DNA from: Escherichia phage vB_Eco_Maverick
Sequence record: NC_073077.1
DNA length: 42,624 bases
Strand: one strand, 5' to 3'
The position numbers were made by a program, and so were the translations under genes. The notes below the pieces were generated by a model. It was not told the origin of the DNA and did not search any database. It saw only the letters and a program-made list of their open reading frames with translations. Shown here one piece after another: positions 9,704-36,763 of this stretch. Each line of letters begins with the position of its first letter. Positions within the stretch are counted from its first letter, which is position 1.

Positions 9704-9783
9704 GGTATCATCTCCGGTATTGGGTTGAGTTTTAGTATTACACCGCTCAATCAAGAATGCAACCAATTTATGAGGATTCAGCT

Positions 9784-10272
9784 ATGGCAGCGGGCACACT
9801 ATCCGTAACGAATAACAGCAAGGCGGTTGTCGGAGTAGGCACAACGTTTACCGCGTTTAAAGCTGGCGACTTCTTAACGCTGGTGGTAGGGCAAGTCCCC
9901 TACACCGTGGCAATCGCGTCCATTGAAAGCGCAACCGAGCTTACGCTGGTGCTGCCGTTCGACGGCCCAACGGCAACCGGCCTTGCGTGGGATGGCGTTA
10001 AGCGCGATACCATGTCGCTGGCAACGATGGGCGTTACCGTACAGGCCCAAAAAGCATTGCGCTTGATGATTGCAGATGAAAACAACTGGCGTGCAATCTT
10101 CGGCGACGCTGAAGAAATCACAGTGACGTTACCTACCGGGCAAGTTATGCAGGGTATGTCGTGGGGCTACCTGTCGCAGCTAATGAAGCAGATTCGCCCC
10201 GTTGAAATCGCGGAATTAAAAGCTGCCGTTGAGGAGTTGAAAGCCGCGGTCGCGGCACTGACAAAAGCATAA
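9784..10272 (+). CDS. hypothetical tail-associated protein (N-terminal domain paralogous to 2879-3478)
   Basis: GAGGA Shine-Dalgarno before ATG 9784; N-terminus GTLSVTNNSKAVVGVGTTF resembles 2879 ORF; C-terminal coiled-coil (EIAELKAAVEELKAAVAAL); followed by terminator. Confidence 0.5.
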   Translation: MAAGTLSVTNNSKAVVGVGTTFTAFKAGDFLTLVVGQVPYTVAIASIESATELTLVLPFDGPTATGLAWDGVKRDTMSLATMGVTVQAQKALRLMIADENNWRAIFGDAEEITVTLPTGQVMQGMSWGYLSQLMKQIRPVEIAELKAAVEELKAAVAALTKA

Positions 10273-10277
10273 TGAGA

Positions 10278-10299
10278 AGGGGCCAAACGGCCCCTTTTT
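10278..10299. terminator. bidirectional rho-independent terminator
   Basis: aggggcc-aaac-ggcccct stem followed by ttttt, between convergent genes 9784-10272 (+) and 10300-10875 (-). Confidence 0.7.
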
Positions 10300-10875
10300 C
10301 TAGTTTGAGTTTTCCCAGTCCATTTTGCGCCGCACCAGCGGGCTTTCGTAATATTCCTTGCCCTCAACTTCCACTAATGGCCAGTCATTAACAATCACGT
10401 ACGGCTCCGCGATATCTTCAATAACGCCGTGCGCGCTTTGTGGCCCTAACGACACACCCACCAGGATAACACCGGCAACGCGACGGGTAAGATACTCGCG
10501 AGCGCAACGCGCCTCTACCAGTCCGCGACGGATGCCGCTGGTGGCCTTAATTTCGTAGGTCCATACGGCATCGACCACATGCTCGCGGAAGTCGGGACCG
10601 GACTTTACCTTGCGCTTGCCGACCATGATAATATCGCCGCGGTCAATGGTATTGGCGCTAAACAGGCCGGTACGCATAAGCAAACCTTGCGGGATGCAAC
10701 TACGCCCGCCCGCCTGCCCTTCAAGGTACATGCCTGCAAACATTTCGCCAAGCACACCGACCAGTCGGCTTTGCTTGCACGCGTCAGACTTTAAGCGCCA
10801 CTGATCAAACTCGATGCTTGCTATCATTGCCGCCAGGTGGAATTGTTTACCGGATATTTCATATTCGCCGTACAT
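10300..10875 (-). CDS. hypothetical protein, possible PD-(D/E)xK-type nuclease
   Basis: 191-aa ORF; segment GDIIMVGKRK...VDAVWTYEIKA fits a D...E-x-K nuclease signature; assignment tentative. Confidence 0.45.
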   Translation of the reverse strand: MYGEYEISGKQFHLAAMIASIEFDQWRLKSDACKQSRLVGVLGEMFAGMYLEGQAGGRSCIPQGLLMRTGLFSANTIDRGDIIMVGKRKVKSGPDFREHVVDAVWTYEIKATSGIRRGLVEARCAREYLTRRVAGVILVGVSLGPQSAHGVIEDIAEPYVIVNDWPLVEVEGKEYYESPLVRRKMDWENSN

Positions 10876-10917
10876 CGTGTGGTCCTCATTGATGCGGGCC
10901 GAAGCCCGCGATTAGAA

Positions 10918-11439
10918 TTATTTCAGTGCGCCAGTCACCAGTGTTTTTTCCATGTTGCGGAAGTCTTCCGGCGTCATGAGGATTTTGGACCCGTCTTCGC
11001 CAGTTAGAACGACCATAGGCTGGACGTCTTGATCTGCAATGCCGAAATTGGCGGCTTTAACCATCTTGCCAGCCGATGCAGAAGGATGCCGCGTCCCCGC
11101 GGTGGCGATGGGCCAACCTTTAAGGCTATCGTATTGCGCTGCCGTCGTATCGACCTGAATCTCATCATGAACGGTCATGTAGGATTCGCCCAGCAAGGCC
11201 GCATACGCTACCAGGTCGACGATATTGTCTTCCTGGTGCTTACGGTGCTGGCGCACCAGCTTCAGGCAGATCAAGAAGGTCCAGGCTTCTTGCTCGGTAA
11301 GGTTGCGCCCGGTAAGCGCGTTAAACACGGCGGCGACCTGTTTAGCGCTGCGTTCGTCTTTCGCGTTGTCATAGCCGTTTTCTTTCCCGCGCTGTTCCAT
11401 AGTGGTGGCGGCGTTTTTGCAGTATTCGTATGCTTTCAT
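10918..11439 (-). CDS. hypothetical protein, possibly nucleotide-metabolism related
   Basis: 173-aa ORF with AAGGA Shine-Dalgarno; all-alpha-looking N-terminal region; no firm motif recognised. Confidence 0.45.
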   Translation of the reverse strand: MKAYEYCKNAATTMEQRGKENGYDNAKDERSAKQVAAVFNALTGRNLTEQEAWTFLICLKLVRQHRKHQEDNIVDLVAYAALLGESYMTVHDEIQVDTTAAQYDSLKGWPIATAGTRHPSASAGKMVKAANFGIADQDVQPMVVLTGEDGSKILMTPEDFRNMEKTLVTGALK

Positions 11440-11502
11440 TATGTGGTCCTTTTTATGGGAGGCCGTATTGCCTCCCGACGCGTTAACTATAGTGCAACCA
11501 AC

Positions 11503-11973
11503 CTATTGGTTGCAAGTGAATTTTGCAACGTTTATTGCGTAAATTTTCGGGACCAAATCGCTACACGCCCGACGAATTGCCGCGATGTTCTTCTCGCAAT
11601 CTTCAATGATGACCAGTTCCGACACGTCTGCATAGCAGACCATCTTGAACACGGCACACGCTTTAAACTCTGGCGGCGGGGTGTCATCCAGCATGTGGCG
11701 CATAAACAACCGGCCTGTCGGGAATACTTCCAGTTGCTCGGCGGTAGTCTCCCAACATTCGCGCTGCCGGTTAGTCAGATACGCTATCTCGAAGCCTTGC
11801 TCTTTGTACATGCGCAGCAGCGGCAGCATATCCATGTTCAGGTCTTCGCGTACGTGCGCTTTGTGCCACTTTGCCCAAAAGGTTGATTTCGTTTTTATCC
11901 CCGGCACCAGGTCGGCACGCGCATCGCTTGAGCCATTAATAACGCCATCCAAATCGCAAATCAGTAATTTCAT
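11503..11973 (-). CDS. HAD-superfamily phosphatase-like protein
   Basis: N-terminal MKLLICDLDGVI matches HAD motif I (DxDG); downstream Thr and acidic motifs present; 156 aa. Confidence 0.6.
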   Translation of the reverse strand: MKLLICDLDGVINGSSDARADLVPGIKTKSTFWAKWHKAHVREDLNMDMLPLLRMYKEQGFEIAYLTNRQRECWETTAEQLEVFPTGRLFMRHMLDDTPPPEFKACAVFKMVCYADVSELVIIEDCEKNIAAIRRACSDLVPKIYAINVAKFTCNQ

Positions 11974-12194
11974 TTTAAACTCTCAATAAGGGTGTAACGG
12001 GCGCTTCGCGCAGTAAAGGAGTTGCACACGAAATGGCAACGCTGAGTCATGACAAGCCATCCGGTGAGGTCAAGGCCCAGGATGTATTCGGGGCGAGAAG
12101 CGCGCACCACACGATCTCGGCGCGGGTCGATGTTATAGTCTCTTTGCATTCGGTCTACTACCGCAGGGTCGCGGTCAACGATTAAGATATTCAA
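11970..12194 (-). CDS. hypothetical protein
   Basis: 74-aa ORF translationally coupled to flanking minus-strand genes. Confidence 0.4.
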   Translation of the reverse strand: MNILIVDRDPAVVDRMQRDYNIDPRRDRVVRASRPEYILGLDLTGWLVMTQRCHFVCNSFTARSARYTLIESLK

Positions 12195-12660
12195 GGAGTT
12201 CTCCTTCGCTCATTATTTCAATTTGTGCGCTGCCGATTGGTGGCGCTTCGTCAAAGATTATCAATTGCTGGCACTTGTTATTGCTCGGCCCGACTTCACC
12301 GGAGACGGCGTGAATGAATCTAATCCGCCAGTCCAGAAGAATTATCAGGTTTGCAGTCTTCCGGGCAAGCCTCGCCCACTTCGTCGACGTGTCCTGATTC
12401 AGTAGCATGACAGTCCGTCGTCCGTGCGCGGCACACTCTACCCACGGCAGCGGATCGGAATACGGCGGATTGCACCACTTCCACCCTTTCAACTCGGACC
12501 AGTCCACATCAAGCGCGCTGTGTTCCGCCGTGAAGTAACGCGGTAGCAGATGATTGGCGTCGCTTGCCGCCATATCGTAACGGAATCGGTATTTCCGACG
12601 AAGCGGTTTGAATAAAGCTGGCGGCGTGCGCCAGCTATCTTTTTGCTCACTCTTCTGCAT
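12175..12660 (-). CDS. DNA N6-adenine methyltransferase (phage Dam-like)
   Basis: 161 aa containing the catalytic NPPY tetrapeptide (WCNPPYSD) and the overall shape of small phage Dam methyltransferases. Confidence 0.75.
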   Translation of the reverse strand: MQKSEQKDSWRTPPALFKPLRRKYRFRYDMAASDANHLLPRYFTAEHSALDVDWSELKGWKWCNPPYSDPLPWVECAAHGRRTVMLLNQDTSTKWARLARKTANLIILLDWRIRFIHAVSGEVGPSNNKCQQLIIFDEAPPIGSAQIEIMSEGELLEYLNR

Positions 12661-13111
12661 GACCTGGATCTATCGCGTATAAAGGGACTTTATTGCCGGT
12701 TTTCATAACGCGCTGGACGCGCTTTGACTCCTCGGCGCTCATTGGGCGCATATCAGTGCTATAACCACCGTTTGATGTGTGCCGCCACGCTATCAGCACC
12801 AGATCTTTCCGGTCGATCTTAGACTGGCGGCCCTTCGGTCGCACGTACGCCTCGGCCCGTTTGCAATGCTCGCGCAGACCTTCGGCAGTGATGCGGTTTA
12901 GCGAGACGGTGGTTGTGTACCCGGTGCGCTGCATAATACCCATCAACTCATACAGCAGTTCGAAGCGCTCCTCTAATTCCTTGCGCGCCTTCTCCTCGCC
13001 TTCATAGCTCGCCAGGTAGGTGTCCGCCAGCGCGTTCGCGCGTTCGGCCTGTTCGCGGGCTTCGAGGCATTGCGCGGCCCAGTAATTTTTCTCTTCTTGT
13101 AAAATTTTCAT
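12647..13111 (-). CDS. hypothetical protein (coiled-coil)
   Basis: 154-aa ORF overlapping its neighbours by a few nt; no motif recognised. Confidence 0.5.
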   Translation of the reverse strand: MKILQEEKNYWAAQCLEAREQAERANALADTYLASYEGEEKARKELEERFELLYELMGIMQRTGYTTTVSLNRITAEGLREHCKRAEAYVRPKGRQSKIDRKDLVLIAWRHTSNGGYSTDMRPMSAEESKRVQRVMKTGNKVPLYAIDPGHAEE

Positions 13112-13354
13112 TTATTTAATCTCCGTAGTGCGGATTTCCTTGCGAGGAATAAATTTGCCGTCTTTCTCGACCCAGCAAGTTCCGTAACGCCATTGGGTAT
13201 TACGGCCTGTTTGCTCGGCATATACGGTCTTGCATTCGTAGCGTTCCGTGTAGTAAATAGCCGCGGTAGGTACGAAAATACAAACGGCAAACATGAGGGT
13301 GAGTATCACCCAAAATCGAAGGTCGCCGTCGTAGTCGAAAAATAATGATCTCAT
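13112..13354 (-). CDS. small membrane protein
   Basis: 80 aa with one strongly hydrophobic helix (FWVILTLMFAVCIFVPTAAIYY); GGAG Shine-Dalgarno; own promoter upstream. Confidence 0.5.
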   Translation of the reverse strand: MRSLFFDYDGDLRFWVILTLMFAVCIFVPTAAIYYTERYECKTVYAEQTGRNTQWRYGTCWVEKDGKFIPRKEIRTTEIK

Positions 13355-13370
13355 TGTGTCGTCTCCGGGT

Positions 13371-13398
13371 ATTAAAAAGGGCGTCCAAACCGGACACC
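13371..13398 (-). terminator. minus-strand rho-independent terminator overlapping the downstream promoter
   Basis: On the minus strand gggtgtcc-ggttt-ggacgccc (one G-U pair) followed by ttttt; lies between the -10 box at 13402-13407 and the RBS of gene 13112-13354. Confidence 0.5.
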
Positions 13399-13401
13399 CT
13401 C

Positions 13402-13430
13402 AATATAATGCAACCAATCTAATTATGCAA
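13402..13430 (-). promoter_or_regulatory. sigma70-like promoter TTGCAT-N17-TATATT embedded in tandem ATTGGTTGCAT motifs
   Basis: Minus-strand reading aTTGGTTGCATaattagaTTGGTTGCATTATATT; -35 and -10 hexamers separated by 17 nt. Confidence 0.4.
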
Positions 13431-13435
13431 CCAAT

Positions 13436-16132: not shown

Positions 16133-16306
16133 TTATTCTTGCGCTGCGCGGTAGCGGCGCTGCCGTTCGCGCTCTTTCTTATTGCGGCATGATTTGCACT
16201 CGGCCCGATACCCGTCTGGACTTCGCGCAGTCTTACCGGTGTATTTGTGGAACTGGGATAACGGCTTGATGCAACCGCAATTACTGCAGCGTTTTTCTTC
16301 AATCAT
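16133..16306 (-). CDS. small zinc-ribbon protein
   Basis: 57-aa product MIEEKRCSNCGCIKPLSQFH...ECKSCRNKK with two CxxC pairs; GAGGA Shine-Dalgarno; the longer frame to 16378 lacks an RBS. Confidence 0.4.
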   Translation of the reverse strand: MIEEKRCSNCGCIKPLSQFHKYTGKTARSPDGYRAECKSCRNKKERERQRRYRAAQE

Positions 16307-16346: not shown

Positions 16347-16625
16347 TTAAGCGACCAATTCAGCAACCAATAAATCACAGTCGGCTATGTTGTCGATGAC
16401 GCGAACGTCCGCACCGCGGCGGGCCATCCGCTCATGTTCTCGTACCTGGTGCGGCTTCGGTTTGCCTCCGGGGCGCTTCACTTCGACGAAAACTATTCTG
16501 CCGTTGATGATGATAATCAGATCGGGAGCACCTGCGCGCCCCTCCCAAGCAACTTTGCGGCAGAATCCGCCGACGGCTTTCACCCGTCTCATCAAGTGAC
16601 TTTGAATCTTGCCTTCTGGTGTCAT
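16347..16625 (-). CDS. VRR-NUC domain nuclease
   Basis: 92-aa product MTPEGKIQSHLMRRVKAVGGFCRKVAWEGRAGAPDLIIIINGRIVFVEVKRPGGK with PD...E-x-K core; ATG overlaps the polymerase stop (TAATG). Confidence 0.7.
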   Translation of the reverse strand: MTPEGKIQSHLMRRVKAVGGFCRKVAWEGRAGAPDLIIIINGRIVFVEVKRPGGKPKPHQVREHERMARRGADVRVIDNIADCDLLVAELVA

Positions 16626-19924: not shown

Positions 19925-20014
19925 TTTCCAATTCCTCATTTTCACATGCATCGGGGTTATTGGAAGCCACCCCGTTCGGCTTGGTTGCCAATTTACTTGG
20001 TTGCGCCTAAGCGG

Positions 20015-22812: not shown

Positions 22813-23048
22813 GTATATCTCCGATTGGTTAAGTTTAGGTGTCGGCAGTTAACTTCGTCGGTGGCCTTAACATATTGCCAGGTTGCGCGTTCTCCCGTTC
22901 GGGTAGTGGACCTGGTTATATAATCACGGTTGGGAATCCTGACACTTCGATCCGGCCCCTGCGTTGCCCCTCTCCAGTTTGCGTCCTGCATCCTGTCGAC
23001 GGAGTGAATGATAGATTGGTTGCAGGATGGGTGTCAACAACTAATTTC

Positions 23049-23141: not shown

Positions 23142-23213
23142 TATCCAAAGGATTTGACACCATGCAGTTTTAGGTGTAGTTTCGTTGGTCATTAACCAAC
23201 AGGAGACTGAATT

Positions 23214-23543
23214 ATGAATATCAAAGAAGCAATTGAAGTGTTATCTAATGCAATCCGCGGCGAAGCGGGTAAATCCTGGTATTACACAAATGCGGTGGAT
23301 ACTCTGTTATTTGAAGTGTCCAGATTATCGCGTGCTGAGAAGGAGCTTACCGCGAAGCTGGAATTGCTCAACGGCACGGCAGCAAGCAAGCTGCAAAAAC
23401 ACAATGAAGAAATGGAAGAATACAAAAAGCAGGTTATCCGTTTGCGCAATGAGGGAAAGTCATGGGCAATGATCGCCGAGTTGACCGGAATTAATCAGAG
23501 CACAGTGCGCTCCTGGGTACGCAATAATAAAACTTCAAAGTAA
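23214..23543 (+). CDS. helix-turn-helix DNA-binding protein (putative transcriptional regulator)
   Basis: 109 aa with coiled-coil centre and C-terminal HTH (KSWAMIAELTGINQSTVRSWV); AGGAG Shine-Dalgarno; first gene of the plus-strand block. Confidence 0.55.
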   Translation: MNIKEAIEVLSNAIRGEAGKSWYYTNAVDTLLFEVSRLSRAEKELTAKLELLNGTAASKLQKHNEEMEEYKKQVIRLRNEGKSWAMIAELTGINQSTVRSWVRNNKTSK

Positions 23544-23553: not shown

Positions 23554-25818
23554 ATGAGCTTGATTAAATTCGCTGTAACACGACCCGCTAAAAAAGGCGA
23601 AAAAGCCAGGGCGGAAAACTTCCAGATGACTACCGAAGAGTTTTTCGAATTTATCAATGATGCGAAAGAAATCTCCTCGGTGCATATCAACAAAACGGAA
23701 GATAAAGCGGAGTATGCGCGCCGCAAGCGTAAGGCTGATGGGATTGTGGCTTATACCAGTGACGGATTACGCCGCAAGACCAGTGCGGTGGATCGCTCGA
23801 TCCTGTTCTTCGATATTGACCGTACCGACACCCGCACCCTGCGCCGCTGCCGTAAGGCGTTCATCGACGCGGGACTGGAACATGTATTTCACACCACAAC
23901 CGGCGATCGCCACCCGCTGAAAGGTGGCACGCGTTGCGCTCGTTTCCTGGTGCTCACTGACAAGCCTGTACCGGCTGAAGACCTGGGCCGCGTCCAGTAT
24001 GCACTATTACACCAACTGGGCCTGTCAGATGTGGACTTCGACGATTGCACGAAAGACACAAACCGCCTTATGTACCTGCCTCACCAGCAATCGGTTGTTA
24101 AGTGTCACTACGGCAAACGTGCCCGCGTCCGTCGTCTGCTGCGCCTGGCGGATAAGCTGGGAGTGGAAAAAGAGGAAGTACGCCGCGAACTAACCCAGGG
24201 CGATGACGGCGTGGCGGACGGCATTCTGGATTGGTGCTTCCAGGCCGGATTCGAACCGCTGTCGTCCGGTCGTGGTTATGAAGTGCCATGCCCGAACGAA
24301 CATCTGCACAGCGGCGAAGGGTCGACGGCTATCATGGTCAAGGATGGCGAGATCCGTTTCAAGTGTATGCACACCGGCAACGAGTGTTGCTCGGAACTGA
24401 ACAGACACCAGCACCTGGCGCTACGTCTTATCGGGATCCCGGACCACCTGAACGTCGAACCGCACAACATGTCACGTAAGCAAATAGCCGCCATCCTCCC
24501 AGGTCTGGACGACGAGGAAGTGGAATCGTGCTATGAACATATCGTTGATGCGGTTGGCGACGGCGACGAGTACGGCGGATGTACGGACGCAGACCTGGAC
24601 AACGAGCCGGTTGCACTGTTCAGTAAACACGACCCGATCATCGAGGGGTTGATTAACTTCAAATCGACCTGGTATATGGCGGGCGAGTCGAACATCGGTA
24701 AATCGTTCTACGTGCTGGGCCAAATGGGTGCTGTTGCCGCGGGTATTCCGTTCGGTGGTGCGAAGGTCGTCCAGTCTCATTGCTTCTATTTCGACGCGGA
24801 AGGTGGCGAAGCCTCCAACCAGCGTAAGGAAGCATTGCAGATTAAATATGAGCACGACCTGGACAAGCTGCACATTATCGATCTGCAATCACGCGGCTGG
24901 GATATCACCAGCAAATCCGGCTTGCGTGAAGTTATCAGCTTCATCAACCGCACCGCTAACGGCGAGCCGGTTGGCCTGGTGGCGTTCGACTCACTCAACC
25001 AGACTGTTGCGCTGCGGTCCGCCGATGCTAAACCGTTCGACGAGAACAACGCCAGCGATATGGGCGAAGTGGTCAAAGCGCTGAAGGCCATTGCGGAAAA
25101 TACAGGCGGCAGTGCGGGCGTCATCCACCACCCGGCGAAAGGTGCAAACGGCAGCAGATCCCCCCGCGGGTCCGGCGCGCTGCATGGTGCTGTTGATTCT
25201 GCGTTCTTCCTGGAACAGCCGGACGACAACCAGCCCGGACAACTGAACCTGTATCACGAGAAGGCACGTAACGGCATCAAGCAAGCGCCGCGCGGATTCG
25301 TCCTGCTCAAGTGCAAGGTTAAGGTGGATCTCCGCAAGTCCGAGGCGTTCGAAGCCCACCAGTCCACCAGCACCGGGCCGGACTTCGGTGACGTCGTTGC
25401 CGGTTGGGACGTCAAGCCGATTGCATCCACGCCTCGCGACGAGACTCTTTACCTCGTACCTGTCGCCCTGGCACCGTTCGCTATCGAACAGGCGAAGGCA
25501 GCGGGCAAGGCCGCAGTTAAGGAAGAGAACACCGCCGGACCGCGCACCGAAAAAGAAAAGGTACTTTACGCGGCCCTGGAAAAACTGATGGAAGATAACC
25601 CGGACCATACCGGATTCAGCAAATCGGCAATTGTCCGCCAGGCTGGGCTTGCGAAAGGTGGCACATCGACGAAGGCAATTGACGATATGGTCGAGCGCGG
25701 CGTGCTAGGTTTTTATACAGACCCACACACCGGGGCCATCTATGGGTCGTCGAATATCGTCATCAAAACGAATATACCCATCACGCTTTCGGCGACCGAC
25801 GACGACCTGAAAGATTAA
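23554..25818 (+). CDS. DNA primase-helicase (primase-polymerase-like N-terminus, RecA/DnaB-type ATPase, C-terminal DNA-binding region)
   Basis: N-terminal acidic motif FFDIDRTD and a Cys/His cluster (CPNEHLH...C..H); Walker A GESNIGKSFYVLG and Walker B LVAFDSLNQ; C-terminal winged-helix-like segment FSKSAIVRQAGLAKGG. Confidence 0.75.
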   Translation: MSLIKFAVTRPAKKGEKARAENFQMTTEEFFEFINDAKEISSVHINKTEDKAEYARRKRKADGIVAYTSDGLRRKTSAVDRSILFFDIDRTDTRTLRRCRKAFIDAGLEHVFHTTTGDRHPLKGGTRCARFLVLTDKPVPAEDLGRVQYALLHQLGLSDVDFDDCTKDTNRLMYLPHQQSVVKCHYGKRARVRRLLRLADKLGVEKEEVRRELTQGDDGVADGILDWCFQAGFEPLSSGRGYEVPCPNEHLHSGEGSTAIMVKDGEIRFKCMHTGNECCSELNRHQHLALRLIGIPDHLNVEPHNMSRKQIAAILPGLDDEEVESCYEHIVDAVGDGDEYGGCTDADLDNEPVALFSKHDPIIEGLINFKSTWYMAGESNIGKSFYVLGQMGAVAAGIPFGGAKVVQSHCFYFDAEGGEASNQRKEALQIKYEHDLDKLHIIDLQSRGWDITSKSGLREVISFINRTANGEPVGLVAFDSLNQTVALRSADAKPFDENNASDMGEVVKALKAIAENTGGSAGVIHHPAKGANGSRSPRGSGALHGAVDSAFFLEQPDDNQPGQLNLYHEKARNGIKQAPRGFVLLKCKVKVDLRKSEAFEAHQSTSTGPDFGDVVAGWDVKPIASTPRDETLYLVPVALAPFAIEQAKAAGKAAVKEENTAGPRTEKEKVLYAALEKLMEDNPDHTGFSKSAIVRQAGLAKGGTSTKAIDDMVERGVLGFYTDPHTGAIYGSSNIVIKTNIPITLSATDDDLKD

Positions 25819-25829
25819 ATTTTGCGTGT

Positions 25830-25928
25830 ATTGGTTGCCGATATGGGAATTCCCATATCGCTAAACGGTTAATTTGTGCGCGCATTGGTTGCCATTTTGA
25901 GTGTTTTTATCTGGTCGTATTGGTTGCC
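25830..25928 (+). repeat. three direct ATTGGTTGCC repeats flanking a perfect 20-bp palindrome
   Basis: ATTGGTTGCC at 25830, 25884 and 25919; GATATGGGAATTCCCATATC at 25840-25859. Confidence 0.8.
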
Positions 25929-25978
25929 GTGTAGTGTAAATATAATGAATAGTTATGCAGTTTTATTGCATAAAGTAG

Positions 25979-26128
25979 GCGGGACAGAAAGCGGGACAAA
26001 CAGGGGGCGGGACAAAGCGGGACAGCACCCCCGTCCCGCCCCGGATGACGCGGCTTCCAGAGGAGCGGGACAGCGGGACAGCACCCCAGTCTTTCAGACT
26101 AGACGGGGGTCAACGGCCCCCCTCGTCT
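25979..26128. repeat. iteron cluster: six direct GCGGGACA octamers plus one inverted copy, ending in a 28-nt GC hairpin (internal copy)
   Basis: GCGGGACA at 25979, 25991, 26007, 26017, 26065, 26073; inverted GTCCCGC at 26033; hairpin agacgggggtcaacggcccccctcgtct at 26101-26128; TGCATAAA box at 25967. Confidence 0.85.
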
Positions 26129-26295
26129 GAGACTGAATAAAATCCGGGGATTGCAAAATACACGGCAGCATGATGCGAAGTGCGGTCGTCGATGAACTAG
26201 GCAACCAATGCGGGTTGTATTATGCTGAGTGAAAAATGCAGTTTTCAGCCACAGCTGATATCGATCAACTTTTTCATGCGCGTGATTAATATTGG

Positions 26296-26324
26296 TTGCA
26301 TTCACCCCAGCACCCTGCTATATT
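26296..26324 (+). promoter_or_regulatory. sigma70-like promoter TTGCAT-N17-TATATT inside ATTGGTTGCA motifs
   Basis: TTGCAT 26296-26301, 17-nt spacer, TATATT 26319-26324, about 28 nt upstream of ATG 26353. Confidence 0.4.
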
Positions 26325-26352
26325 GGTTGCACACCAACATGAGGACTGAACA

Positions 26353-26811: not shown

Positions 26812-27093
26812 ATGGGCCGTAGACGAGCAAAACAGCTTTCGTGGCATATTCCCCTGCATTGCATACGAATATGGGCTAAGAATGCGGTTGAGGGCGAATC
26901 GGTATTCTGGTGCTATCGCGACGATGTGAAGCCGTTGACGCAGACTCGCTACTTGCACCAGTTCGCAGCACAACACGATTTCAGGGTGCGGACTTCCTTG
27001 CAACCAATGGGGATTCGTATTACATTACGCCGGAAGCCCGCCGTTGAGCGGGTAGGCAAACACTGGAGACTGAGCAAATGCAAAGAGCGCTAA
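26812..27093 (+). CDS. hypothetical protein
   Basis: 93-aa ORF starting MGRRRAKQL (longest frame begins at GTG 26803); basic, Trp/Cys-containing. Confidence 0.35.
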   Translation: MGRRRAKQLSWHIPLHCIRIWAKNAVEGESVFWCYRDDVKPLTQTRYLHQFAAQHDFRVRTSLQPMGIRITLRRKPAVERVGKHWRLSKCKER

Positions 27094-29460: not shown

Positions 29461-29484
29461 GCCCGGAATTAACCGGGCTTTTTA
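29461..29484 (+). terminator. rho-independent terminator after the lysis cassette
   Basis: gcccgg-aattaa-ccgggc stem followed by ttttt. Confidence 0.7.
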
Positions 29485-29666
29485 TTGCTTGACTCGCAAC
29501 CAATCAACGAGAGGAGTAATCAAGATGGCACGTAAAGATATTTGGGTATTAGCGATCTGGACCACCGCGGCTTTTATCGGCATGGTTATTTGCGAATTGA
29601 TATAGCCCGCCGCCATATGGACCGTGGTATATTGTCCACGGTCCACTAATCAGGAATTAATTAAAT

Positions 29667-30809
29667 ATGCACCCGCAAACTAAAATTACCGATGAGCAAT
29701 TGATCGCAGAAATTCAGGCAGGGACTACGGTTAAAGAGATTGCGAAGAAATACGGCATTGCACTTCGAAATGTCTATATGCGCAAAGCCCGCCTGTCGAA
29801 AAAGGGGATTGGTCATGGCAATGATGCCGTGATCCGTAAGCGCGTTGCCGATGGCTTTGGGGTTAAGCGCGTATCGGCCCTGGTGCGCGGTAATGGCGAA
29901 GAGGTCATGTCGTGGGTCATCACTGAGCAGGACAAGGAGCGCCAACTCGAAGCTATGCGCGCTGTTGTCGAGGGTATGAACAGCGAAATCACACCGGCAG
30001 CGCCAGTAAACGCCCCGCCAGTACCGATCCAGGCGCTAGACTTGCTCAACCTGTACACCGTGTCCGACTTCCACCTGGGTATGTTGGCATGGGGCGAGGA
30101 GACTGGCGAAGACTGGGATATGGCGATAGCCGAAGACCTGTTCTACCGCTGGTTTGTCGAAGCCTTCGCCCGCGCCCCGGACGCAGGCACTGCCGTAATT
30201 AATATCCTCGGTGATATGGCCCACTTTGATAGCCTCGATGCTGTCACTCCGGCAAGTGGTCACATACTGGACGCCGACACCCGATACCAGAAGTTGGTCC
30301 GCTACATGATTCGCATGGTGCGCAACGTCGTCGAACTTGCCCTGCAAAAACACCACAAAGTCAAACTGCTAATCGTCCAGGGGAATCATGATGAGTCGGG
30401 CATGATTTGGCTTGCTGAGATGTTCAACACGCTGTACGAGAACGAGCCGCGCGTCGATGTGGATACGTCCCCGGACGTCTACAAAATGGTGCAGCACGGC
30501 AAGACCACGCTATTTTTCCACCACGGGCATAAAGCGCGCTTTGACGCTATCGAAACCGTCATGATTTCTAAATTCAGACAGGCTTTCGGGGCCAGTGAGT
30601 ACAGCTACGCGCACGTAGGCCACTTGCACCACCAGAAGATTGTAGAATCCCGCAACATGATTGTTGAACAGCACCGGACGCTCGCAGCGAAAGACGCCTA
30701 CGCCAGTCGTGGCGGTTGGATGAGCGGTCGCAGCGCAAACGTCATCACCTATAGCGCCAACTACGGCGAAGTAGCGCGCTTAACCATTAGCCCGGAAATG
30801 TTGAAGTAA
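29667..30809 (+). CDS. HTH-containing calcineurin-like metallophosphoesterase (SbcD/Mre11-like)
   Basis: N-terminal HTH TTVKEIAKKYGIALRNVYMRKAR; phosphoesterase motifs in order SDFHLG, GDMAHFD, GNHDE, HHGH, GHLHH; lies immediately upstream of terS. Confidence 0.65.
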   Translation: MHPQTKITDEQLIAEIQAGTTVKEIAKKYGIALRNVYMRKARLSKKGIGHGNDAVIRKRVADGFGVKRVSALVRGNGEEVMSWVITEQDKERQLEAMRAVVEGMNSEITPAAPVNAPPVPIQALDLLNLYTVSDFHLGMLAWGEETGEDWDMAIAEDLFYRWFVEAFARAPDAGTAVINILGDMAHFDSLDAVTPASGHILDADTRYQKLVRYMIRMVRNVVELALQKHHKVKLLIVQGNHDESGMIWLAEMFNTLYENEPRVDVDTSPDVYKMVQHGKTTLFFHHGHKARFDAIETVMISKFRQAFGASEYSYAHVGHLHHQKIVESRNMIVEQHRTLAAKDAYASRGGWMSGRSANVITYSANYGEVARLTISPEMLK

Positions 30810-30939
30810 CGGCAACCCATAAGCCTCCCAGCCTGCCGATTTGGTGGGCTTTTTTGTGCCTGTTATAATCCCCCTTAGATGGCAGGGCCGTCTCCTATGT
30901 TGCCGATGGTCGGCGCATATGAACAAAAGGGCTTATATC

Positions 30940-32876: not shown

Positions 32877-32886
32877 GGAAACGACC

Positions 32887-34407
32887 ATGACCGTTAACGT
32901 TGACAACCAGCACCCGCTCTATGCGCGCATCGCGCCAGAGTGGAAAATGATCCGCGATTGTGTGGCAGGGGAGCGCGCCGTGAAGGCGTGCGGCCCCTTG
33001 TACTTGCCTCATCCCGCCAGTGGCGACAATACGGACCCGAAAGCACGGGCGCGGTATAAGGCGTACAAGCAACGCGCTGTATTCCTGAACGCCACCGCCC
33101 GCACACTTAACGCGCTGTTAGGCGTTGCCTTTGCTAAACCGGTAAGTCTGGACCTTTCCGGGGCGATGGCTGACCTGATTGACGACGTAGACGGCAGCGG
33201 TATGCCTCTGCCGCAACTACTGCGCGGTGCTATGTCGGAAGTGCTGCAATCAGGCCGTGCGGGCTTTATGGTGGACTACGATCGCCAGGCGCATTTTGAT
33301 GAACTGGGTAACGTAGTTCCGCAGACAGCCGCCGAGATGGCGTCACACCGCCCTCTTATCCGCCTGTACACGGCAGAACAGATCATCAACTGGCGGCAGA
33401 CCCACGGCGTCGATACGCTAATTGTGCTGAAGGAAACGGACGAAATCAGCACCGAAGACCCGGACGACTTCGCAAACCACGAAGTAACAATCTGGACCGA
33501 GCTTCGCATGATTAACGGTGCGGCACACGCCCGCCGCTGGTACTACAACGCGGACACGTCCGAGGTGCAAATGGACTTGCCGCGCGGCTTCACCCGAACC
33601 GACCTTGTACCACTGGTGGATGCTGCCGGTAACGCGCTTACGCAACTACCGTTTTGCTGGTGCGGTGCGGTGGACAACAACGCAACGCCTGACGCCGCTC
33701 CGCTGGCGGATATCGCATCCATCAACATTAAGCACTACAACGCCGAAGCGGACGTCGCCGAGATTGCGCACATCGTGGGCCAGCCTACCCTAGTTGCGAC
33801 GGGCTTGACCCAATCATGGGCGGACAAGAACCTGAAGGGCGGCATTGCCCTCGGTGCGACTAAGGGCGTTATCCTGGGCCAGAACATGGACGCTAAACTG
33901 ATCCAGGCGGAGGAGCGCAACTTGTCTGTTGCACTGTGTGAGCGTCGCGAATTGCAAATGGCTAAACTTGGCGCGGCCCTGGTCGAGAAGGGGACCGCAC
34001 CTAAGACGGCAACGGAAGCGGCCTACGATGCGCAGACTGATAACAGTATCCTGTCACTGATCGCCGGTAACGTCGAGAAGGCTTTCAACCGTGCGCTGCA
34101 AATCGTCCAGCTATTCACGGGCGACACCGCCGACCAGCGTGTGACGCTGAATAAGTTCTACACCGAAATCACGGTTGATGCGCAGCTTATGACCGCGATG
34201 ATGTCGGGTGTGCAGACGGGTACGGTCCGCCTGGCTGACTTCATCAAGTGGATGATGGCGCAGGGTGTCATCGACGACTCGCAAACCGTCGAGCAGGTGG
34301 AAGACGAATTGCGAAATCAGAATCCATTGCCTCAAATGTCCCCTGATGCGGTAGAATCTACCGAAGAAGACCCGGACAAGGTAGCGGACAATGGCGAAGA
34401 CAATTAA
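32887..34407 (+). CDS. portal protein
   Basis: 506-aa ORF directly after the terminase with acidic C-terminus; size and position typical of portal. Confidence 0.8.
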   Translation: MTVNVDNQHPLYARIAPEWKMIRDCVAGERAVKACGPLYLPHPASGDNTDPKARARYKAYKQRAVFLNATARTLNALLGVAFAKPVSLDLSGAMADLIDDVDGSGMPLPQLLRGAMSEVLQSGRAGFMVDYDRQAHFDELGNVVPQTAAEMASHRPLIRLYTAEQIINWRQTHGVDTLIVLKETDEISTEDPDDFANHEVTIWTELRMINGAAHARRWYYNADTSEVQMDLPRGFTRTDLVPLVDAAGNALTQLPFCWCGAVDNNATPDAAPLADIASINIKHYNAEADVAEIAHIVGQPTLVATGLTQSWADKNLKGGIALGATKGVILGQNMDAKLIQAEERNLSVALCERRELQMAKLGAALVEKGTAPKTATEAAYDAQTDNSILSLIAGNVEKAFNRALQIVQLFTGDTADQRVTLNKFYTEITVDAQLMTAMMSGVQTGTVRLADFIKWMMAQGVIDDSQTVEQVEDELRNQNPLPQMSPDAVESTEEDPDKVADNGEDN

Positions 34408-35494
34408 TCAACATTTGGCGGATCGAATGATTCGCCGTCACATCTTCACCCAGCGCCTGAGCAATGATCAGGCGCGGAGGGTGCTGGCTATGTGGGAGAA
34501 GTTCCGGCCCACTTTACTTGGTAAGCTGACCGAGTTACTTGATGGCAAAAAGTCCATGAGCAACAAGGCACTTACCACACTGTTAACCCAAATCGACAAG
34601 ACCGTCAAAACGGAACTGCGCGCCGAGTTTAAAGTGCTGGCGGAGAGCCTTCAGGAGTTCGCCGACACCGAGGCTGATTATCTCGCGGACACACTAACGG
34701 CAGCGATCCAGCCCGCTGTCGCTGTACCAGCGGTTGAGGTGGTGGGTGTAGTTACGGGCGCGCAGATTGCAGCGACTGCAATGAAAAACCCGTTCCAGGG
34801 AAACACCATGATGCAATGGCCTGATTCACTTTCCGAGTGGACTAGGACGCAGATCGGCAATCAGGTGCGCGCTGGATTCATCCAGGGCAAGCCGACGATG
34901 GAAATTATCGCGGATGTGAGGCGCGCGCTAGGCGGTCGTAGTGCGCAAGCAATCTCAAGCGTTGTTAAGTCCGCGGTCAACCACTATGCGGCGACCGCCC
35001 GCGAATTAATGGTAAAAGCTAATGACGATATTCTCGAAGGTCGCCAATGGTTGGCTACATTGGACACGCATACTTCTCCCATGTGCCAGCTACGCGATCG
35101 CCTGTTTTATCCGGTTGATGTTACCCCCGACACCAAAGGAAAGCGCGGCGGGAAAGTGGTGGCGGGGTCACAATATGGCGCTGGTCCGGGCAAGCTGCAT
35201 TATTGCTGCCGTTCGACGGAGACGTGGAAAGTCAAAGGTATGGAAGATTGGCCCAGTGGTAAGCGTCCGGCACTGAAGGCTGACGCAGGCAGATTGCTGA
35301 GTGAGCAGGTCGACGCGCAGACTGATTTCTTCTCATGGGTGCAGCGCCAGCCGCGCCATATTCTGGAGGAATTATATGGGGTGCAGCGCGCCGATCAGAT
35401 TATGCGCGGCGTGAAAGTGCCGAAGATGTTCACCGATACTGGCGAACTAATGACTATTGCACAGCTTAAAAACCGGGGGTTATGGCGTGATTAA
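34391..35494 (+). CDS. minor head protein (Mu F / SPP1 gp7-like head morphogenesis protein)
   Basis: 367 aa following the portal; conserved-looking segment WLATLDTHTSPMCQLRDRLFYPVD as in head morphogenesis proteins. Confidence 0.7.
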   Translation: MAKTINQHLADRMIRRHIFTQRLSNDQARRVLAMWEKFRPTLLGKLTELLDGKKSMSNKALTTLLTQIDKTVKTELRAEFKVLAESLQEFADTEADYLADTLTAAIQPAVAVPAVEVVGVVTGAQIAATAMKNPFQGNTMMQWPDSLSEWTRTQIGNQVRAGFIQGKPTMEIIADVRRALGGRSAQAISSVVKSAVNHYAATARELMVKANDDILEGRQWLATLDTHTSPMCQLRDRLFYPVDVTPDTKGKRGGKVVAGSQYGAGPGKLHYCCRSTETWKVKGMEDWPSGKRPALKADAGRLLSEQVDAQTDFFSWVQRQPRHILEELYGVQRADQIMRGVKVPKMFTDTGELMTIAQLKNRGLWRD

Positions 35495-35816
35495 GTATGC
35501 AGCGATTGGGCTGGTTATCGGTCTGGTGGTAGGATTCTGGCTAGGTGACTCCTATCGCGCTGGCGTAGTGGCGGGGGCGGCGCAAGAAGCGCAAGCAGAA
35601 GCCCAACGGCAGCAAACTAAAGTTATTGAGCGCTCCGTGCAGGCCGAACAAGCCCGCGACGTAGAATACCGGACTATCACGAAAGAGGTTGTTAAATATG
35701 TTACGCGCCCTAACCGCCCTGATTGTAGTTTTGATGCTGAGCGCGTGCGGATCAAGCAACGTGCCGTTGATGCCGCTAACGGAGTCGGCACTGCGACCGC
35801 CGTGCAAGTTCGATAA
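35457..35816 (+). CDS. i-spanin (Rz-like) candidate
   Basis: N-terminal transmembrane helix (AAIGLVIGLVVGFWLG) followed by a charged coiled coil; contains an embedded out-of-frame lipoprotein ORF; true start may be an internal GTG. Confidence 0.5.
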   Translation: MHSLKTGGYGVIKYAAIGLVIGLVVGFWLGDSYRAGVVAGAAQEAQAEAQRQQTKVIERSVQAEQARDVEYRTITKEVVKYVTRPNRPDCSFDAERVRIKQRAVDAANGVGTATAVQVR

Positions 35817-35928
35817 CCCGTCCGCGGACCCCGACGAAGATTTGATGATTGACGTGAAAAATATGGAATGCGGCGCGAAGCTAAGGGCGCAAGTGCTGGA
35901 TTTGCAGAAAATAATTCGGGGGCTGTGA
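35689..35928 (+). CDS. o-spanin (Rz1-like outer-membrane lipoprotein) candidate
   Basis: Signal peptide plus lipobox LMLSAC, Pro-rich mature part, embedded in the +1 frame of the i-spanin candidate. Confidence 0.55.
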   Translation: MLNMLRALTALIVVLMLSACGSSNVPLMPLTESALRPPCKFDNPSADPDEDLMIDVKNMECGAKLRAQVLDLQKIIRGL

Positions 35929-35942
35929 TGGCCCCCTTTTGT
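35918..35942. terminator. hairpin terminator between convergent genes
   Basis: gggggc-tgtgatg-gccccc stem followed by tttt on the plus strand. Confidence 0.55.
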
Positions 35943-36710
35943 TAGCGCGGAATACCGCAGATTTCGTTTAACGTCTTCACGTCCAGCGCCACCGCCGTGG
36001 ATTTTGGCTTGTCAGGGTAAGGAATGAACTGTTCCACTTCAGGCCACGCCTTGATCAGCTTCTTATCGGTATTGTGCATATCCAGCACACCGGTAACGGT
36101 TAGTTTGAACGCGTCATAATTAGCTCGCAACTCGCGGCGGGCCTTGTCGTTGCGATCCAGGCACTTACAGAAATCATGGTCCGCCGGGTAGTCTACGCGA
36201 CCGCGCGGAAGATATATCGGCAGCGATTTTCCGTCCTCGTCCACTTCGCACACTGAAGCCAGCATAACTTCCTCGTACCCCGGTACGATATCACCGAGAT
36301 CGGGAGATAGCTTGTTCATATATTTCTCTTCCCAGTATCCGCGGTGCAGGCGGTATCGGTATCCATCGCCGCTCAATGATACGGTGCGAACATTACCGCC
36401 TGCGTTGATATCGAATCCGGCGCTATAAACGCTGCCGATGCCTTTTGGCCGGTCGGAGTTATAGCTATACGTCGCCTTGTCGGTGTAAACGCTAACGCCA
36501 TACATCTGCGACTGGTTATCGCGGATTTCTGCGATATATGCGCGTAACTCGGCGAACGTGCGAATGCCTTCCGGCATACAGTCCAGCGTAATGGCGTACG
36601 CCAAGTCGCGAGAGTCCATCATGATGGATTTTGCTTCGGTCGCGATTTCATGGTCGCGCAGGATGTTAGCCAGAATCTTGTTTTTAACGTCTTTTGTCAG
36701 TCTCATTTTT
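35942..36710 (-). CDS. hypothetical protein, moron-like gene on the opposite strand inside the structural module
   Basis: 256-aa product starting MRLTKDVKNKIL at ATG 36710; own promoter and leader upstream; the longer frame to 37114 is antisense to the scaffold gene. Confidence 0.55.
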
Positions 36711-36734
36711 GCGTCCTCGTTGTTGGTGTGCAAC

Positions 36735-36763
36735 CAATATATGCAACCAATACGCGGATTGCA
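36735..36763 (-). promoter_or_regulatory. sigma70-like promoter TTGCAA-N17-TATATT for the moron gene
   Basis: Palindromic TTGCAA at 36758-36763 and minus-strand TATATT at plus 36735-36740; followed by leader ggttgcacaccaaca shared with the 26353 gene. Confidence 0.4.

Follow-up and report, generated by a model that had tools for sequence, protein, structure and literature searches.

The genome of Escherichia phage vB_Eco_Maverick, a virulent Dhillonvirus, contains a repeated word of 9–10 bases, ATTGGTTGC(A/C), which is a genuine, strongly conserved box found on promoters of non-structural genes and beside a likely replication origin. This word is probably the recognition box of a sequence-specific DNA-binding protein encoded by the phage, the copies forming an operator set over sigma70-type promoters of the non-structural genes. 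Control elements of this type are commonplace. In the literature searched, we found no published description of the motif and no published binding or transcription work on any member of the group.

Abundance and placement of the box

The window, i.e. the whole stretch of 42,624 nucleotides that was analysed (NC_073077.1), contains 16 exact copies of ATTGGTTGC on its two strands, against 0.54 expected (sd 0.73), and none of 100 dinucleotide shuffles reaches this number. An earlier note on this DNA had reported a motif recurring at about 20 places, almost always between genes, and this observation holds. ATTGGTTGC is the top enriched 9-mer of the window, and the 10-mer with at most one mismatch occurs 17 times, against 3.3 expected. 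Ten exact copies are wholly noncoding and four to five others lie in the first or last codons of genes or in doubtful ORFs, which places 14–15 of the 16 in noncoding or gene-edge DNA; with a noncoding share of just 7.4% of the genome, the expected number of noncoding copies is about 1.2. The final 127 nt of the window repeat its initial 127 nt, an assembly overlap that leaves the motif counts unaffected.

The term genome-wide, used in the same note, was too broad, as the forward-strand structural gene blocks have no promoter-associated copy, and the two TTGGTTGC copies within tail genes (1524 and 4873) look like chance occurrences. Its positions were off by 1 nt at most, with the last pair at 36729/36742 rather than 36728/36741; the pair at 19981 was correctly located, but its second copy starts at 19997 instead of 19998 and both copies are CTTGGTTGC, in which the leading A is missing. 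Searching the whole window with Rfam families at gathering thresholds gave no match to a structured RNA or tRNA-derived repeat, and the inverted copies argue for a role of the box at the DNA level rather than in RNA.

Registers of the box on sigma70-type promoters

A PWM scan finds 16 of the 20 copies overlapping sigma70-like windows of the top 0.1%, in both orientations and in discrete registers, namely -39..-32 (with TTGCAx as the -35), the spacer (-22..-14), and over the -10/+1 region (-8..+2), although this register analysis is partly circular because the PWM picks TTGCxx as a -35. Identical registers recur in L153, L155, L156, and eiAU. Taking as operators those sites that overlap the core promoter (-35 to about +10), the same 16 of 20 copies qualify.

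Several copies supply the -35 themselves. On the minus strand, TTGCAT of the ATTGGTTGCA copy at 9758..9767 (register -39..-32) provides the -35 for a weak promoter (TTGCAT-17-AATACT, 9762 to 9734, 6.3 bits) upstream of a small lipoprotein gene (9655–9461, minus strand; phrog lipoprotein), and this copy is kept in HK578, SO-1, and SSL-2009a. The minus-strand tandem pair at 13409..13435, with copies 17 bp apart, belongs to a promoter running from 13430 to 13402 (TTGCAT-17-TATATT, 9.9 bits), the upstream copy at -39..-32 and the downstream copy at -22..-15. At 16350..16371, also on the minus strand, ATTGGTTGCT and a degenerate ATTGGTCGCT lie within the promoter 16366 to 16338 (TTGCTG-17-TATAGT), upstream of a gene for a 56-aa Zn-ribbon protein (16306–16133, minus strand); the motif is kept in 14 genomes, and the degenerate extra copy at 16351, ATTGGTCGC, was absent from the earlier list. 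The plus-strand tandem pair at 26291..26337 occupies the promoter 26296-26324 (TTGCAT-17-TATATT), with the first copy at -39..-32 and the second at -8..-1, where it forms the palindrome TTGGTtgcacACCAA (26323-26337); among relatives both copies are invariant while the spacer varies freely.

Two further sites reach the same spacing through a palindromic TTGCAA. The inverted pair TGCAACCAAC-ct-ATTGGTTGCA (11493..11514), invariant in 4 genomes, lies within a minus-strand promoter (11515 to 11486, TTGCAA-18-TATAGT, 10.2 bits), where one copy provides the palindromic -35 and the other occupies the spacer right up to the -10. The minus-strand copy at 26999..27008, inside an unannotated plus-strand ORF and invariant in 18 genomes, provides the -35 of a plus-strand site at 26998-27026 (TTGCAA-17-TACATT).

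Inverted copies are found within the spacer or at +1 of strong consensus promoters that have a -35 of their own, TTGAC(A/C/G). The two plus-strand CTTGGTTGC copies at 19980..20004 are inverted relative to a minus-strand promoter (20018 to 19990, TTGACC-17-TAAATT, 12.9 bits) and lie in its spacer (-21..-14) and over -5..+2; this promoter precedes the gene of an Enc34-type ssDNA-binding protein (PF10991), and the motif is invariant in 17 genomes. The strong leftward early promoter (23008..23037, minus strand, TTGACA-18-TATCAT, 13.9 bits) has a plus-strand copy (23015-23024) inverted within its spacer at -22..-15, and this copy could also supply a weak rightward site, TTGCAG-16-TAATTT, with its -35; in L153, L155, and L156 the spacer of this promoter holds two abutting inverted copies. 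The lone minus-strand copy at 29495..29504 is what a 23-bp deletion has left of two direct copies; both persist in other genomes, where they lie inverted in the spacer and at +1 (10747/10769 in L156) of a plus-strand promoter TTGAC(T/G)-17/18-CATACT. A further minus-strand promoter, at 36723..36764, has TTGCAA as its -35 (TTGCAA-17-TATATT, 36764 to 36736, 11.2 bits); this promoter, which drives the sole minus-strand gene there (36706–35942, Nmad5), carries copies at -21..-14 (36742-36751) and -8..-1 (36729-36738), the latter forming a palindrome at 36723-36737.

These registers qualify the suggestion that the motif often serves as a -35. The proposed arrangement of TTGCA(T/A) 17 nt upstream of TATATT or TATAGT is indeed present at 13427 and 26292 (TTGCAT-17-TATATT), with variants at 16363 (TTGCTG-17-TATAGT) and 9759 (TTGCAT-17-AATACT), and at 11506 and 27000 through the palindromic TTGCAA. 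A co-oriented hexamer with a spacing of 16–18 bp is found in these four directly placed copies, weakly at 23016, and via TTGCAA at 11506/27000, and it is missing from about 13 others. The -35 role stands for only about 5–6 of 20 copies (register -39..-32); others are in spacers, over -10/+1, or inverted. A constraint on the hexamer alone was rejected, ATTGG/TTGG before TTGC varying no more than TTGC does; the invariance covers all 8–10 bases, beyond TTGCA, and the word is therefore more than a -35 hexamer. The box is present on 6 of the 13 best noncoding promoter sites and is absent before the TerS and major-tail genes, so that the boxed promoters form a defined subset.

We consider it very unlikely that the word is nothing but promoter sequence, that is, a favoured extended -35 or UP-like word for host sigma70, spread by duplication of cassettes and lacking a dedicated binder. 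TTGCA(A/T)-17-TATA(T/G)T sites do rank among the best 1e-4 of windows, an extended module of about 30 nt is common to the 26296 and 36764 promoters, and boxes are found at boundaries of variable gene cassettes, but this leaves unexplained the inverted spacer copies in promoters with their own consensus -35, the +1..+10 copies, the promoter-less copies flanking the iterons described below, and the invariance of ATTGG.

A middle-promoter activator box, which would replace or extend a poor -35 so that a bound phage activator recruits host RNA polymerase, the other copies being secondary, also seems unlikely. Ten co-oriented copies in this phage and its relatives lie exactly at -39..-32, where a sub-optimal TTGCAx hexamer is followed by a 17-bp spacer and a good -10 (TATATT, TATAGT), and the consensus promoter feeding gp47 could yield an activator early. 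Such a box would act in the manner of class II activators or of T4 MotA boxes, the latter likewise being asymmetric phage boxes of 9–10 bp that stand in for a good -35 and keep a constant spacing to a sigma70 -10. Against this, copies in spacers, over -10/+1, or at +3..+10 are as many or more; they occur in both orientations and within promoters that have a consensus -35, at positions where a bound protein normally represses. Unlike at MotA boxes, half of the copies here are in other registers or inverted and the TTG of the -35 is kept in the box, so that TTGCAx promoters may work unaided. Middle promoters of the MotA type proper were rejected, given the varying positions and orientations and the lack of any MotA or AsiA family match among the early proteins in Pfam and PHROGs scans.

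A half-site palindrome after the -10

The palindrome TTGGT-N5-ACCAA occurs three times, against 0.07 expected, each time directly after a -10. One of the three, TTGGTcattaACCAA (23185-23199), follows the -10 of the consensus rightward promoter that feeds gp47 and the helicase-primase gene (23154..23199, plus strand, TTGACA-17-TAGTTT, 12.0 bits) and covers its predicted start site; in relatives, a full inverted box lies at +3..+10 of the same operon promoter. The palindrome at this promoter suggests that the operon may be autoregulated. Dyad symmetry is seen in these three palindromes and the inverted pair at 11493-11514, most copies being single and asymmetric.

Conservation among relatives

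Across Dhillonviruses, 145 of 160 motif columns are invariant (91%; diversity 0.028), compared to 834 of 1392 neighbouring columns (60%; diversity 0.159; Fisher p ~1e-16). HK578, SO-1, and SSL-2009a have 13–14 copies each, at orthologous places, and the Edwardsiella phage eiAU has 23 copies, against 1.8 expected, in similar architectures. The TTGGTTGC core is common to phages of Escherichia, Shigella, Sodalis, and Edwardsiella. At the site following the helicase-primase gene, the word takes the form GTTGGTTGCA in eiAU and GTTGGCTG in phiEap-2 and L030, and no such word is seen at this location in other relatives. These lineage-specific variants at one location argue for a reader encoded by the phage over a host reader.

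That the box is the site of a host (Enterobacterales) protein exploited by the phage appears highly improbable. The core is shared by phages of four host genera that have no small HTH protein in common, as a host reader would allow, but Enterobacter relatives use GTTGGCTG at the same location and others have no word. The box is not known to match the consensus of any E. coli regulator; closest to it are the FadR-type ATTGGT half-sites of PdhR and UxuR, whose dyad spacing differs.

The origin-like region

Four box copies flank an iteron-rich region after the helicase-primase gene, and this region is a likely replication origin. Its core (25975..26135) contains about ten GCGGGACA iterons, a repeat family separate from the motif, and a hairpin, and the SO-1 record annotates a 'region B' at this location. 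On the left flank, three plus-strand ATTGGTTGCC copies (25830, 25884, and 25919, within 25830..25928) are invariant in relatives while their flanks vary. On the right flank, a minus-strand ATTGGTTGCC copy (26200..26209), convergent with those on the left, belongs to a 13-nt inverted repeat whose other arm is 25881-25893 and is invariant in 18 genomes, again between variable flanks. No convincing promoter was seen for these four copies, the PWM scan giving no convincing sigma70 site at 25830 and 25884 in particular.

Such clusters raise the question whether the boxes are replication-initiator sites, read by the helicase-primase or a partner, with the iteron cluster as the functional part and the promoter copies coupling or autoregulating transcription. 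In three lineages, boxes cluster at the helicase-primase gene's 3' end or directly beyond it (6 here, some 10 in eiAU, and 6 of a variant form in L030 and phiEap-2), adjoining a shared GAATAGTTATGCA box and lineage-specific iterons, and the half-site palindrome lies at the gp47/helicase-primase operon promoter. DnaA boxes and the Rep sites of iteron plasmids are similar in that asymmetric 9-mers in both orientations cluster by origin-like iterons and a replication gene, and also lie over promoters, with a half-site palindrome at the operon promoter. Nevertheless, we judge this quite unlikely. In contrast to those systems, the GCGGGACA iterons hold the core of the putative origin here, and most copies are at promoters distant from it. 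Co-variation of the box with the helicase-primase as initiator was rejected, as segment identities do not track box presence: no segment of the protein is more alike between this phage and eiAU than between this phage and box-less relatives, the C-terminal part (641-754) being 21% identical to eiAU compared to 28–31% to box-less relatives, and no DNA-binding domain was detected in it beyond AAA_25.

A candidate binding protein

Among the early genes, gp47 encodes the sole HTH protein found in the Pfam and PHROGs scans. The ORF, at 23214..23543 on the plus strand, encodes a gp47-like protein of 109 aa, predicted to form a long helix (residues 23-79) and to carry an HTH at its C-terminus. Its assignment as an HTH protein in the earlier note is confirmed by Pfam matches to HTH_23 and Sigma70_r4_2, by an AF2 model (pLDDT 82), and by superposition of the head on HTHs of LuxR/GerE/NarL regulators, resolvases, and transposases in Foldseek, with E-values that are not significant because the domain has only about 35 residues. 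The HTH is invariant across 14 family members. The modelled likeness to NarL/LuxR (GerE) regulators is one of fold only, and gp47 differs from them in lacking both a receiver and a ligand domain. The heptamer sites of NarL can be single, paired in inverted orientation, or directly repeated; their place in the promoter varies, and they serve for activation or repression.

gp47 and the box co-occur in relatives about 70% identical that lost the GCGGGACA iterons, a co-occurrence confounded by shared ancestry. No gp47 homolog was found in eiAU, profile search included, and a Cro/C1-type HTH protein occupies the gp47 position there. As eiAU has the box, either the reader is a protein other than gp47 or another reader took its place. 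The operator reading put forward in the earlier note fits all registers and orientations. The eiAU case weakens gp47 as the binder; we tentatively regard gp47 as the most likely box binder in Dhillonviruses.

Possible mechanism and comparison with known systems

If the boxes are operators of a phage-encoded protein, this regulator would control early and middle promoters. Bound to the spacer or +1 boxes of strong consensus promoters, it would exclude or stall RNA polymerase at the leftward early promoter, the promoter of the ssDNA-binding protein gene, and the gp47/helicase-primase operon promoter, and the outcome might be shut-down of early transcription or temporal control. At promoters with a sub-optimal TTGCAx -35, the same protein could repress or replace -35 recognition. 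The predominance of single asymmetric boxes is unusual for a classical dimeric repressor. If gp47 formed a coiled-coil dimer whose two heads are only loosely tethered, this would account for the tolerance of direct, inverted, and variably spaced boxes.

A close parallel is offered by the lambda-type Cro/CI operators (OR/OL), and by Cro-like early shut-off more broadly. There, too, one recognition sequence is repeated over the core elements (-35, spacer, and -10/+1) of early promoters that diverge, and the rightward operon likewise begins with the gene of a small HTH protein that has a site on its own promoter. In contrast to the 17-bp dyads of lambda, the boxes here are mostly single, asymmetric, in either orientation, and variably spaced, and they lie over about 10 promoters across 27 kb of a virulent phage instead of in two control regions. 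The predicted fold also differs from Cro/CI, the HTH of gp47 being C-terminal after a long helix.

In a broader reading, which we think rather unlikely to hold in all its parts at once, one gp47-type protein reads the 9-bp box in any orientation and runs the whole non-structural programme. This coiled-coil protein would shut the strong early promoters and its own operon through spacer and +1 boxes, replace -35 recognition at TTGCAx promoters, and bracket the replication origin, coupling transcription switching to origin firing, while the boxes would double as recombination joints for accessory-gene swaps.

We also observe boxes at the borders of variable gene cassettes. The 36764 promoter is kept in HK578 and SO-1 with differing cargo genes, the first genes behind the 26296 promoter differ, and the 29495 locus has its deletion between direct boxes. 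The promoter-early stem-loop (PeSL) cassettes of T4-type phages similarly have repeated promoter modules at variable cassette borders; compared to PeSLs, the boxes here are far shorter, and recombination would be a by-product. The base-for-base conservation and the positioning of the box point to protein binding.

Dhillonviruses are common E. coli phages, with more than 150 related records in the phage collection, and they are represented in the BASEL collection and used for work on defence systems and phage therapy; we found no description of their transcription programme in the literature searched. If correct, the operator reading would provide a regulon map of about ten promoters, with a candidate master regulator and its operators. 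It would also improve annotation, as consensus scans and deposited annotations would be missing most promoters of the genus; the deposited record of HK578 has three annotated promoters and that of vB_Eco_CS16 none. The natural accessory-gene slots behind the 36764 and 26296 promoters would then be useful insertion points for engineering. Within the spacer copies, a change of TTGGTTGC to TTCCTTGC would keep the -35 and -10 intact.

Abundance, placement and conservation of the box

The window is ~100% identical to Escherichia phage vB_Eco_CS16 (LR999870.1), a Dhillonvirus of the HK578/EP23/SO-1 group, with a few small indels and with position 1 rotated to position 6184 of the CS16 record; an assembly overlap makes its last 127 nt a repeat of its first 127 nt. 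The deposited CS16 record annotates CDSs and terminators, and neither promoters nor repeats. Mapped onto the window, this annotation places the structural genes on the + strand, from 30940 across the wrap point as far as 9429; genes for replication and nucleotide metabolism form a leftward block from 22811 down to 10300, and a rightward block from 23214 comprises a gp47-like protein, the helicase-primase, small genes and the lysis genes.

The box, a word of 9-10 nt with the forms ATTGGTTGC and TTGGTTGC, ranks first among the enriched 9-mers of the genome (order-3 background). ATTGGTTGC occurs 16 times in the window, against 0.54 expected and a maximum of 3 in any shuffle, and the 10-mer with one mismatch allowed occurs 17 times (3.3 expected). 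The recurrence above expectation for base composition that the earlier note had proposed is thus borne out, with its box coordinates right to within 1 nt. The placement mostly between genes also holds: only 7.4% of the genome is non-coding, and 10 exact copies are wholly non-coding, a further 4–5 being found on terminal codons of genes or within doubtful ORFs. The leading A is missing from the copies at 19981 and 19997, and position 16351 has a degenerate form of the box, ATTGGTCGC. The Dhillonviruses HK578, SO-1 and SSL-2009a each have 13–14 exact copies at orthologous places (0.54 expected in SO-1).

In alignments of twelve motif-bearing regions from up to 18 Dhillonvirus loci, we observe that TTGGTTGC is essentially invariant, whereas neighbouring spacers and flanks vary freely, most clearly in the spacer separating the 26292 and 26323 copies and in the flanks of the 26201 copy. 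Invariant columns account for 145/160 in the box (mean pairwise diversity 0.028) versus 834/1392 in neighbouring positions (0.159; Fisher p ~1e-16), which amounts to footprinting and not to independent replication, the aligned genomes being kin. The contrast between box and flanks inside the very same alignments is strong despite this kinship. Judged from sequence, the box is a real, conserved regulon-type motif. A search of the whole window against Rfam at gathering thresholds gave no match to a known RNA family.

Position of the box relative to promoters

We scanned both strands with a sigma70 position-weight matrix, numbering the -10 hexamer -12 to -7. Sixteen of the 20 box copies overlap a top-0.1% scan window, and 14 of these fall in eight sites scoring in the top 0.01%. 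When co-oriented at -39 to -32, the box supplies TTGCAx as the -35 (9759, 13427, 16363 and 26292, and 23016 for a weak rightward site); the matrix by construction selects TTGCxx as -35, the good -10 at 17 bp being independent of that choice. Other copies lie in the spacer at -22 to -14, abutting the -10, in either orientation (direct at 11494, 13410 and 36743, inverted at 19997 and 23016), or over the -10 and start site at -8 to +2 (direct at 26323 and 36730, inverted at 19981), or inverted at -34 to -26, with the palindromic TTGCAA of the box as the -35 (11506 and 27000). The region's strongest consensus promoters, TTGACA-18-TATCAT (23037→23008, - strand) and TTGACC-17-TAAATT (20018→19990, - strand), each possess a separate -35, and the box stands inverted within their spacer. 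The earlier view of the box as the -35 of sigma70-like promoters therefore fits between roughly a quarter and a third of the copies.

Among the 13 best non-coding promoter-like sites, six are boxed, and another two at gene edges, while the promoter-like sites ahead of the TerS and major-tail genes have no box; the boxed promoters thus make up a defined subset for non-structural genes.

In its working, the box system is closest to a Cro-like operator set. It recalls T4 MotA boxes in the fixed -39 to -32 register, and DnaA/Rep boxes in the cluster at the putative origin and in the half-site palindrome at the operon promoter. Membership tests were negative both for a plain -35 element and for a MotA system, and co-variation gives no support for membership in the initiator-box class. 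A sigma54 -24/-12 element and FadR-type dyads were also rejected, the spacing in the box sequences being different from theirs.

At 13375-13402, the terminator hairpin and T-run of the upstream operon (GGGTGTCCGGTTTGGACGCCCTTTTT) start 3 nt past the -10 hexamer belonging to the promoter 13430→13402. RNA made from this promoter would begin within the 5' arm of the hairpin and escape termination, a compact terminator-promoter overlap. At 29495-29504, CS16 lacks 23 bp that other Dhillonviruses keep between two direct box copies, consistent with a deletion through recombination between box repeats; the loss takes out the -10 of a + strand promoter, TTGACT-18-CATACT, retained in other genomes. Immediately past an inverted box, a strong SD (GAGAGGAG) leads into an unannotated, hydrophobic + strand ORF of 26 aa (MARKDIWVLAIWTTAAFIGMVICELI, ~29528-29605), and the deposited record annotates the opposite strand instead (29482-29616).

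Within the + strand structural block, a single gene (35942-36706) lies on the - strand; it encodes an Nmad5-domain protein (PF18757) and has its promoter at 36764→36736. The same locus holds an unrelated 140-aa gene in HK578 and a gene annotated as a possible 'moron' in SO-1. The three genes share one boxed promoter, and homology stops a few bases past the second box, so that the slot looks like a site of cargo exchange. The first gene behind the 26296 promoter likewise varies among genomes.

Origin-like region and iterons

The non-coding stretch past the helicase-primase gene (25819-26352, 534 bp) contains six box copies. Three ATTGGTTGCC copies on the left flank and one inverted copy on the right (13-nt inverted repeat) enclose a core that consists of some ten GCGGGACA iterons, a repeat family distinct from the box, and a hairpin; the pair of boxes of the 26296 promoter comes next. 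The SO-1 GenBank record has a repeat "region B" here and a paralogous "region A" ahead of the tape-measure gene. Region A of the window (42324 to the end) has iterons and no box.

(A/G)GCGGGACA occurs 18 times (1.6 expected), concentrated in two paralogous non-coding blocks, one behind the helicase-primase gene (25975-26135, region B of SO-1) and one that separates the tape-measure gene from the tape-measure chaperone genes (42324-42624, on into 1-200, region A). Both blocks terminate in the hairpin AGTCTTTCAGACTAGACGGGGGTCAACGGCCCCCCTCGTCTGA and are candidate origins. The iteron word changes among relatives, to GGAAGACGAC in the contig L153 and to CGGACAA in phiEap-2.

Control region of gp47

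The consensus rightward promoter TTGACA-17-TAGTTT (23154-23182), which feeds gp47 (a 109-aa HTH protein) and the helicase-primase, has no full box. Directly downstream lies TTGGTcattaACCAA (23185-23199), with the TTGGT-N5-ACCAA palindrome that the full boxes at 26323 and 36730 also make; it occurs 3 times against 0.07 expected, every time right behind a -10, and is kept across Dhillonviruses.

Three contigs with divergent gp47 homologs (L153, L155 and L156; helicase-primase 66–70% identical to CS16, nucleotides ~72%) have 6–8 copies of ATTGGTTGC in 6–20 kb. The spacer of their leftward early promoter consists of two abutting inverted boxes (TTGAC-GCAACCAA-c-GCAACCAA-tc-TAGTAT), their gp47 promoter is near-consensus (14–15.5 bits) with an inverted box at +3 to +10, and the co-oriented -39 to -32 register is seen again. 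An operator in the spacer or at +1 to +10 of strong promoters, including the regulator's own, is the classical layout for repression and autoregulation. We infer that in Dhillonviruses, a genus in wide use, the boxes would repress strong promoters and autoregulate the promoter of their own regulator.

In the same region (23141→~23050, - strand), a good leftward promoter with a TG (TTGAAA-17-AATAAT, 11.7 bits) is followed after ~35 nt by a GC-rich hairpin and T9 (dG -16.7, z -3.1). The predicted transcript of ~55 nt would stop just ahead of the main leftward promoter and would run antisense to whatever is transcribed rightward from the weak site at 23019-23046. At the corresponding place, L153 shows a hairpin with an A/T-run whose sequence differs. 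This unit may act as a small RNA or else as an insulator terminator.

Candidate readers of the box

The Edwardsiella phage eiAU-183 has ~10 copies of GTTGGTTGCA at the location equivalent to the origin-like region (23 in the genome, 1.8 expected), and the Guernseyvirinae-like L030 and phiEap-2 have six copies of a variant, GTTGGCTG, which in phiEap-2 lie beside the shared GAATAGTTATGCA box and CGGACAA iterons. Other relatives, with a helicase-primase 43–45% identical, show no such word at this location. That the box differs by lineage at a homologous site speaks for a reader encoded by the phage and not by the host, and overall we consider a phage-encoded reader likely. A scan of viral contigs for tandem box copies yielded, for the most part, chance matches and tandem repeats in coding sequence, and no phage group past the Dhillonvirus relatives and eiAU. 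The literature searched on Dhillonvirus/HK578 promoters, SO-1 repeats, eiAU and Dhillonvirus/Jerseyvirus transcriptomes gave no account of the motif and no TSS data; the repeated motif in a Kagunavirus paper differs from the box.

gp47 matches HTH_23 and Sigma70_r4_2 and is the sole HTH protein found among the early genes. The gp47 family numbers just 24 clusters; the N-terminus varies among its members, and the C-terminal half hardly changes at all. The AlphaFold model (pLDDT 82) consists of a 57-residue helix followed by the HTH, whose head superposes at ~1 Å on LuxR/GerE/NarL, resolvase and transposase HTHs, with Foldseek probabilities of 0.9–0.98 and E-values that, for a domain of this short length, miss significance. 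L153 and L156 have gp47 and the box and lack GCGGGACA, so the presence of gp47 follows that of the box rather than that of the iterons; the idea that gp47 binds the GCGGGACA iterons instead was rejected, these two contigs having retained it with an invariant HTH.

In eiAU, the box occurs in similar promoter architectures, e.g. TTGCAT-17-TATAGT overlapping a second copy. Neither tblastn nor a profile search found gp47 in this phage, and a Cro/C1-type HTH stands at its position. The alternative put forward in the earlier note, an operator for a phage regulator, with the HTH protein at 23214-23543 as the one to check, is partly supported in that the HTH is found and tracks the box, but eiAU is boxed without gp47. 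We consider gp47 the leading, unproven candidate for the box reader in Dhillonviruses.

The helicase-primase was rejected as reader, since the conservation of none of its segments tracks the box and no extra domain was found; no further DNA-binding candidates common to CS16 and eiAU were found. The end of the helicase-primase gene (25780-25818) encodes an acidic tail in all homologs compared (DDDLKD, DEDLNDD, SDLED and similar), which recalls those of T7 gp4 and gp2.5, whose acidic C-terminal tails contact the polymerase.

A 56-aa Zn-ribbon protein ('Lar-like', 16133-16306, - strand) is 64% identical between CS16 and eiAU, as well conserved as the polymerase, and in each of the two phages a boxed promoter immediately precedes its gene. 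The phiEap-2 operon holding the homolog has a variant box upstream, and box-less relatives gave no tblastn match to the protein in their loci. This protein may be an outside candidate for the reader. A 380-aa calcineurin-like phosphoesterase (29667-30809) has an HTH-like N-terminal stretch (TVKEIAKKYGIALRNVYMRKARL), and the SO-1 record labels its homolog a putative transcriptional regulator. Neither eiAU nor the loci of box-less relatives gave a tblastn match to the phosphoesterase.

Apart from the box, the octamer ACGGCAGC/GCTGCCGT occurs 28 times in the whole window (~3 expected) and in each of the three reading frames; genes have 19 of the copies on their sense strand and 7 on the antisense strand. 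It is similarly enriched in distant relatives (L021-L030) and phiEap-2, and is a polar word, possibly Chi-like or tied to replication/packaging polarity.
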